From: Escherichia phage A6-6
Length of the DNA: 64,000 bases
Sequence record: PQ510734.1
Reading direction: 5' to 3' (one strand)
Shown piece by piece: positions 21,957 to 22,818 of the stretch. The translations under genes were made by a program, and so were the position numbers. The notes below the pieces were generated by a model. It was not told where the DNA came from. It made no database searches and was given only the letters and a program-made list of their open reading frames with translations. Numbering within the stretch: position 1 is the first letter of the stretch; the number at the start of each line of letters is the position of its first letter.

Positions 21957-22010
21957 ATTCACAGTTACTTGAATAAATAGATTACTAATTAAAATATTTA
22001 AAGGAAACAC

Positions 22011-22328
22011 ATGAAAACCTATAAAGAATTTATTGCAGAATCTGCTGCAGGACAACGTGTAGAAGGTGGTTATATCTGGATTGAACAAGTTGAGCCGCCA
22101 AGTCGCACTTCTACAGGTAAATGGAAAATCACTGTTGATGGTCCTGGTGGTAAACGTAGGACTCTTAAAGAAATTAATGGGTACTATGAAGAAGCTCTTT
22201 CTGATGCGGGTACTTATATGATGCAAATCATGATTAAAAACCCAGAAAATCGTTTTGCGGCTAGAGTTTTCCGCCGTATTGGAAATAAGCTTTATGATGC
22301 ATATTCTAAAAACTTCCCTAAAGAATAA
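22011..22328 (+). CDS. Internal protein (CTS-bearing), ipIII/ipII locus
   Basis: 105-aa ORF starting MKTYKEFIAESAAGQ, matching the T4 internal-protein capsid targeting sequence. Confidence 0.7.
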   Translation: MKTYKEFIAESAAGQRVEGGYIWIEQVEPPSRTSTGKWKITVDGPGGKRRTLKEINGYYEEALSDAGTYMMQIMIKNPENRFAARVFRRIGNKLYDAYSKNFPKE

Positions 22329-22344
22329 AAATTAAAGGAAACAT

Positions 22345-22818
22345 ATGAAAACATATCAAGAATTTATTACTGAAGCAGCTATTAATTCTCAAATTATTGC
22401 TGAATCTTTTACTGATCTTTTGAAATTTAAAAAAGGTCAGAAAATCACTGCTGTATTGGATGATGGTACAGAAGTTGAGATGGATGTACAGGGATATAAT
22501 TATGCAGTAGATGGAAAACTGTATAATAAATCTCACGCTAAATTTGATTCATTTGACGACTTTGTTAATACAGTTGAAGATGAAAAAACTCGTCGATCCA
22601 TTGCAACTGGTGATGCTAAGGTTCTTATGGCACATGGCCATGAACGCATTCGCGCTAAACAGAATAAAATGGGTGAAGATAATTTTGCATTAGTTGGTTA
22701 TCAATCTGGTAAACAAACTTATGGCTATCAACGTACTGCTACTATGTATAACAAAAATGGTAAAATTGCCTTTGTGAATAGTAAAGGTTCTATTCAGTAC
22801 GTCAAATCATTCAAATAA
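22345..22818 (+). CDS. Internal protein (CTS-bearing), ipIII/ipII locus
   Basis: 157-aa ORF starting MKTYQEFITEAAINSQIIAE; near-identical RBS and start context to the preceding IP gene. Confidence 0.7.
   Translation: MKTYQEFITEAAINSQIIAESFTDLLKFKKGQKITAVLDDGTEVEMDVQGYNYAVDGKLYNKSHAKFDSFDDFVNTVEDEKTRRSIATGDAKVLMAHGHERIRAKQNKMGEDNFALVGYQSGKQTYGYQRTATMYNKNGKIAFVNSKGSIQYVKSFK

Follow-up and report, generated by a model that had tools for sequence, protein, structure and literature searches.

Tandem ip10 and ip4 genes, each headed by a repeated start and leader block, in the e-proximal internal-protein locus of Escherichia phage A6-6

In the maturation of the T4 head, a short N-terminal leader (the capsid targeting sequence, CTS) takes the precursors of the internal proteins (IPs) into the scaffolding core of the prohead, where the prohead protease gp21, whose consensus is (L/I)-x-E, cuts them after Glu10. 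The leader of IPI is longer and is cut after residue 19. About 1000 IP molecules are present in each T4 head, and these stay with the DNA and are injected (PMC3012670). The different IPs share the conserved CTS alone and are viewed as defence proteins against nucleases that depend on hydroxymethylcytosine (hmC), as exemplified by IPI*, which inhibits the GmrS/GmrD enzyme of E. coli CT596 (PMC3012670). Each of Ip1, Ip2, and Ip3 blocks a single GmrSD variant; for Ip2 and Ip3 this is in either case a further variant, without cross-protection (PMC12373910). Bas37_0260 of phage Bas37, which also bears a CTS, is an inhibitor of McrBC (HIDEN-SEQ preprint, bioRxiv 10.1101/2025.11.20.689424), and the reach of the class thus extends to type IV enzymes beyond GmrSD. 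There are at least 10 Ips that share nothing but the leader, a statement for which Repoila et al. are cited (PMC12373910, PMC3012670).

We analyzed a stretch of 64,000 nucleotides of Escherichia phage A6-6 (PQ510734.1; hereafter the window). It belongs to a Tequatrovirus with glucosylation genes of the T2/T6 type and is oriented opposite to the T4 GenBank record. The genes around the lysozyme gene e follow each other on the + strand in the order e.6, e.5, e.4, e.3, e.2-like, nudE, e, ip10, ip4, vs.8, and vs.7, and the part from nudE to vs.7 (nudE-e-ip10-ip4-vs.8-vs.7) has the same order in PP01 and SH7. In T4, the corresponding interval contains e, ipIII (193 aa), ipII (100 aa), denV, and vs.8, so that the sizes given for the two T4 proteins in a preliminary description of this DNA (about 194 and 100 aa) were essentially right. 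A 2.1-kb query over the locus matched 744 phage records, 293 of which cover at least 80% of it; Shigella phage SH7 comes first with 97.6%, and the value for PP01 is 95.6%. We consider it very probable that, as a whole, this is the e-proximal IP locus of a T2/PP01-like Tequatrovirus, with ip10 and ip4 in tandem encoding injected inhibitors of host defence and with the CTS block serving as a recombination patch. The features of the locus are the following.

21428..21922, + strand: gene e, T4-type lysozyme, the upstream anchor of the IP locus (ORF list)
21923..22010, + strand: intergenic leader of the first IP gene, collinear with the T4 ipIII leader (continuous in blastn against T4)
21993..22046, + strand: repeat copy 1, with ribosome site, start codon, and CTS (repeat search, identity count)
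22011..22328, + strand: ip10, a 105-aa precursor starting MKTYKEFIAES, with CTS codons 1-10 at 22011-22040
22051..22817, + strand: segment without DNA homology to the T4 e-vs.8 interval except for the second repeat copy (blastn against T4)
22327..22380, + strand: repeat copy 2, with ribosome site, start codon, and CTS (repeat search, identity count)
22345..22818, + strand: ip4 (= IpIV), a 157-aa precursor starting MKTYQEFITEA, with the CTS MKTYQEFITE
22959..23498, + strand: homologue of vs.8 and downstream anchor (named vs.8 in PP01 and RB3; phrog_1488)

The span first given for the pair, 22000-22375, takes in the first gene but ends a short way into the second; the feature in full runs from about 21993 to 22818. 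The upstream anchor is annotated e or endolysin at the syntenic place in PP01, SH7, and T4. Two late-promoter motifs (TATAAATA) lie just 5′ of e, at 21394 and 21407, and the motif occurs nowhere else in the locus stretch, so that no dedicated late promoter is claimed for the IP genes. The leader of ip10 contains an early-promoter-like element (GTTTAC...TATATT) and an AAAGGA ribosome site, and its last 30 nt are identical to the T4 ipIII leader at 29 positions. A scan for sigma-70 promoters and terminators gave no promoter site in this intergenic leader and no terminator, and an Rfam scan of 21300-23100 gave nothing near any gathering score. The 140-bp gap between ip4 and vs.8 (22819-22958) matches, at 96% identity, the 5′ portion of the longer vs.8 annotation of T4.

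Judged by sequence identity, the two ORFs are the known and already named Ip10 and Ip4. The 105-aa ORF is identical to the "Ip10 internal head protein" of PP01 at 104 of 105 residues (99%), matches phrog_3966 (E = 5.8e-34), and resembles the Ip10 proteins of SP18 (70%, E = 1.8e-42) and VR7 (72%), with Karamvirus homologues at about 50% identity. A tblastn search finds mature Ip10 in 189 phage records, and fetched records confirm it in Tequatrovirus, Mosigvirus, Gaprivervirus, and Karamvirus. The VR7 record derives the name from RB69 ORF124c and from the Ip10 of phage Pol; the link of the name to phage Pol passes through the annotations of PP01, SP18, and VR7, not through the Pol sequence. The 157-aa ORF is identical to phage T2 Ip4 over all 157 residues (157/157, 100%), matches Pfam DUF7412 (PF24183) over its full length (residues 1-157; 319.4 bits for a cut-off of 27), and matches phrog_3155, "internal virion protein" (E = 6e-102). 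Ip4 or IpIV is its annotated name in RB3, ime09, and PP01. Homologues of mature Ip4 are present in 470 phage records (tblastn), including T4-like phages of Klebsiella, Salmonella, and Serratia, down to about 60%–70% identity, and an alignment of 14 Ip4 sequences has 64 invariant columns.

The lengths of 105 and 157 aa had been taken in the preliminary description as those of the mature proteins. They hold as ORF sizes, that is, for the precursors; with a cut after Glu10, as in T4, the predicted mature proteins have 95 aa for Ip10 (pI 9.60) and 147 aa for Ip4 (pI 9.14). Both leaders are close to MKTYQEFIAE, the CTS of T-even internal proteins, and end in a prohead protease site of the (L/I)-x-E type (I8-A9-E10 in Ip10, I8-T9-E10 in Ip4). 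At position 5 of the CTS of Ip10 (22023-22025), the window has Lys (AAA), whereas PP01 and most homologues have Gln (CAA). Because T4 IPI also has Lys at this position, the change is probably neutral for targeting. In Ip4, an (I/L/M)-x-E motif recurs as IAE at residues 18-20 (22396-22404). Its Glu20 is invariant in the 14 homologues, and the model gives residues 10-20 pLDDT values below 50. Prohead protease cleavage of Ip4 might take place after residue 20, beside or instead of Glu10, which would give a mature protein of 137 aa.

Outside the leader, Ip10 and Ip4 show no relationship to one another or to IPI, IPII, and IPIII of T4. Compared with each other, they have no detectable similarity past the block (E = 34). 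BLASTP of both ORFs against IPII and IPIII gave alignments restricted to the N-terminal residues (within residues 2-14), matching the first 11-13 residues alone. A weak similarity between the 157-aa ORF and IPII (E = 5e-6) falls to E = 0.46 when the CTS is removed. Hence, orthology of the mature regions with T4 IPII or IPIII, which would have spoken against the earlier proposal of an IP repertoire distinct from that of T4, was not found, and the proposal stands. The T4 pair and the pair in the window are alike in occupying the slot between e and vs.8, in the ribosome site, in the CTS, and in encoding small basic proteins (the T4 IPs have pI values of 9.0–9.65), but differ in size (193 and 100 aa in T4, 105 and 157 aa here) as well as in mature sequence. 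T4 IPI* resembles them as an injected, protease-processed IP with a related N-terminal leader and is the mechanistic model for the class; it differs in being encoded at another locus (57B-trna.4), in its unrelated mature sequence, and in giving no fold match. Bas37_0260, as described in the preprint, is another non-T4 internal protein that shares the N-terminal signal alone, but it is encoded in the ipI locus.

The AlphaFold2 models of both proteins have compact alpha/beta folds. For Ip10, the mean pLDDT is 84.8 in the best of five models, which range from 80.8 to 84.8; for Ip4, the best model has a pLDDT of 78.8 and the others 48–68. When both families were searched as profiles against the sequences in the PDB, no match had an E value below 0.18. 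Foldseek of the two models against the PDB gave best E values of 0.16 and 0.06, with all TM-scores below 0.4; no PDB match reached the significance threshold of E ≤ 0.001, and the predicted models thus had no fold likeness to IPI* or to any solved structure in this search. Against BFVD, Foldseek of Ip10 returned only a member of its own family, from Cronobacter phage Pet-CM3-4. An exhaustive HMMER search with mature Ip10 over 1.84 billion representatives retrieved P0023 as the one true relative, along with five repetitive proteins of very large size (of the FG-GAP, RTX, filamin, Calx-beta/CBM60, and SdrD types); these five match at several short stretches, which we ascribe to repeats or composition and not to homology. 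Neither protein had a meaningful match in PADLOC or NCBIfam.

T-even phages have a second IP locus, from 57B to trna.4, which contains ipI in T4, Ip5 and Ip6 in T6, and Ip7 in T2. In the window, 57B ends at 14438 and Trna.4 starts at 14509 (a 61-aa ORF that is 100% identical to T4 Trna.4), and there is no IP gene between them. Because this locus is empty of IP genes, the canonical CTS-bearing IPs of the window seem to be confined to Ip10 and Ip4. A six-frame motif search of the window found the strict CTS motif in these two ORFs and in no others. The tRNA cluster that lies at 15464-16484 has eleven genes (Gln, Leu, Gly, Pro, Ser, Thr, Met, Tyr, Asn, His, and Arg), against eight in T4. It lacks segB; at 7883-8185 on the minus strand, about 100 aa resemble SegB with 53% identity.

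The window encodes a DNA modification of the kind that is attacked by modification-dependent restriction enzymes. It has a dCMP hydroxymethylase (60840-61574) and an alpha-glucosyltransferase (48765-49964) that is 91% identical to T4 alpha-gt. At the position of T4 beta-gt, it has a 282-aa ORF (61571-62419) that matches phrog_842, beta-glucosyl-HMC-alpha-glucosyltransferase; T4 b-gt itself has no match in the window. This set of glucosyltransferases is of the T2/T6 type and, since genes for both alpha-gt and beta-alpha-gt are present, suggests that the DNA of this phage carries gentiobiosyl-hmC.

If Ip10 and Ip4 behave like the IPs of T4, their CTS would bring the precursors into the scaffolding core of the prohead, gp21 would cut them after Glu10, and the small basic mature proteins would remain with the packaged DNA and be injected along with it. 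Once in the cell, each would bind and block one host defence enzyme, most likely a type IV (modification-dependent) restriction nuclease that attacks DNA with glucosylated hydroxymethylcytosine. The suggestion in the preliminary description that the two proteins are plausible injected effectors agrees with the accepted reading of the protein class (PMC3012670, PMC12373910). We infer an anti-restriction role for Ip10 and Ip4 by analogy, with T4 Ip1, Ip2, and Ip3 and Bas37_0260 as models, and for the IP class this analogy is strong. A literature search on the two proteins found no report of their presence in virions or of their processing. IPII and IPIII have known GmrSD targets, whereas Ip10 and Ip4 have none, and comparisons with the known GmrSD inhibitors IPI*, Ip2, and Ip3 (BLASTP, PDB, and Foldseek) gave no similarity of sequence or fold beyond the CTS.

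Silas et al. assayed ip4-10 against a GmrSD panel and saw no reproducible inhibition; the panel consisted of representatives of 15 groups of a very diverse family (PMC12373910). In the same work, GmrSD-ECOR21 inhibited the replication of T2, and the plaquing of T2 on GmrSD-ECOR17 was restored by supplied Ip3 (PMC12373910). As T2 has a protein identical to the Ip4 of the window and is restricted nevertheless, Ip4 does not neutralise GmrSD-ECOR17 or GmrSD-ECOR21. It is possible, and we propose it tentatively, that Ip10 and/or Ip4 neutralise a defence outside the screened GmrSD variants, by folds that have no solved relative. This could be, for example, an uncharacterised, modification-dependent nuclease specific for gentiobiosyl-hmC DNA or an early immunity system that does not act by restriction.

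In a close variant of this proposal, the proteins would be injected anti-defence proteins whose target is not a type IV enzyme at all, being instead some other early-acting immunity or the exclusion function of a competing phage. The negative outcome of ip4-10 on the GmrSD variants, the sensitivity of T2 to GmrSD-ECOR17 and GmrSD-ECOR21 despite its Ip4, and the lack of fold similarity to IPI* are all consistent with such a target. Nevertheless, the CTS-bearing IPs whose targets are known so far all act on type IV enzymes (GmrSD or McrBC), and the diversity of the GmrSD family is large compared with the 15 groups that were represented in the panel, so that we regard a target of this other kind as rather unlikely.

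Alternatively, Ip10 and Ip4 might be packaged and injected with no specific host target, as basic counter-ions or DNA-associated filler that aids packaging or ejection. The basic pI of both mature proteins (9.1–9.6) points in this direction, as does the absence of a target for ip4-10 in the published GmrSD screen; a review of the T4 head also describes contacts of IP lysines with DNA phosphates, with some 1000 IPs in a head (PMC3012670). However, filler does not explain why unrelated folds are swapped between phages, nor why each family is well conserved within itself (as in the invariant columns of Ip4) and has confident compact predicted folds, and all three T4 IPs proved to have specific targets. 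A charge-balancing structural role thus fits unrelated but internally conserved folds poorly, and we find it improbable.

Defence inhibition remains the reading that we prefer, and the organization of the DNA around the two start codons indicates how such genes may be exchanged. The preliminary description had pointed to two adjacent IP genes that begin with nearly the same ribosome site and start codon, and this is confirmed by counts: the window has two occurrences of AAAGGAAACAYATGAAAACMTATMAAGAATTTAT and no more, both on the + strand (22000-22033 and 22334-22367), and 100 shuffles gave none. A repeat search extends the block to a gapless direct repeat of 54 nt, with 83% identity and a period of 334 nt, whose core (21998-22046) is identical to the second copy at 42 of 49 positions. 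Each copy comprises the AAAGGA ribosome site, the ATG, and ten codons, which read MKTYKEFIAE in ip10 and MKTYQEFITE in ip4, as in the pattern MKTY(K/Q)EFI(A/T)E given earlier, and only 16 nt separate the stop codon of ip10 from the start codon of ip4. The same block heads T4 ipII and ipIII. Codons 1-10 of the CTS are identical to those of T4 ipII and ipIII at 27–28 of 30 nt, against 4–9 of 15 nt for codons 11-15; for ip10 and ipIII, the values are 27/30 and 9/15. The roles of the block would thus be three: it starts translation, tags the protein for packaging, and offers a short patch of homology at the borders of cassettes. PCR surveys of T-even phages by Repoila et al. (EMBO J 1994) reportedly led to the same view of it as start, packaging tag, and recombination joint.

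Comparison of the window with other phages places the block at the breakpoints of cassette differences. By blastn, DNA homology with T4 is unbroken from nudE through e and the leader and ends at 22050. This point lies near codon 13 of the gene in the ipIII position, some 10 nt beyond the CTS, and puts the left joint just past the CTS-coding DNA. Homology resumes with the final base of the ip4 stop codon (22818), the counterpart of the base just past the T4 denV stop codon. Between these points, 767 bp in the window take the place of 1433 bp in T4, which comprise mature ipIII, ipII, and denV, and the second repeat copy (22332-22376) matches the starts of T4 ipII and ipIII. T4 has denV in this interval, whereas the window does not: T4 DenV gives no tblastn match anywhere in the 64 kb. 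The gene, which lies between ipII and vs.8 in T4, is also lacking at the e-vs.8 locus of PP01, SH7, RB3, and T2. T2 Ip4 is likewise encoded beside e and upstream of vs.8, but in T2 and RB3 ip4 stands alone after e, whereas in the window it is preceded by ip10. Against RB3 (e-ip4-vs.8), positions 20900-22046 and 22332-23899 of the window both align, and the two alignments overlap on RB3 1958-2006, that is, on both repeat copies. Hence, relative to RB3, the ip10 cassette is a 334-bp indel bounded by the repeat copies, which is the signature of gain or loss through recombination between them. The repeated block would then act as a short homology patch for the gain, loss, and swapping of cassettes.

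The two genes lie in a polymorphic IP locus between e and vs.8 that is collinear with those of T4, PP01, SH7, RB3, and T2. The interval is e-denV-ip10-ip4 in Shigella phage A2, e-denV-ip10-ORF-ip7 in VR7, e-ORF-denV-ip10-like in CC31, and e-ip4 in T2; in RB69 it has two annotated internal head proteins and ORF124c, and T6 has no IP gene at the e locus. In the T6 record (MH550421, 2956-3018), e adjoins regB directly, and the block vs.3-vs.8 is missing together with the IP genes of the locus, which indicates that the interval can shrink far. That the shared start block stems from one gene that was recently duplicated in tandem at this place, with later divergence of the two copies, as the spacing of the two copies (334 nt) and their 83%–88% identity might suggest, is hardly credible and is contradicted by the absence of similarity past the block, by the existence of each mature part as a separate family that occurs alone or with other partners in other phages (ip4 only in RB3 and T2, ip10 without ip4 in CC31 and VR7), and by the presence of the same block at T4 ipII and ipIII.

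In conclusion, the locus is an example of the long-known polymorphism of T-even IP loci. It is nothing new on its own, as publications and GenBank annotations already contain the genes, their names, the leader, the polymorphic locus, and the idea of injected anti-restriction effectors, and its practical value is small. Ip10 and Ip4 are nevertheless common, with 189 and 470 phage records, and are among the T-even IPs that still have no known target. With predicted folds that have no known relative, they are reasonable candidates for target-finding screens, and screens of this type recently gave targets to Ip2, Ip3, and Bas37_0260.
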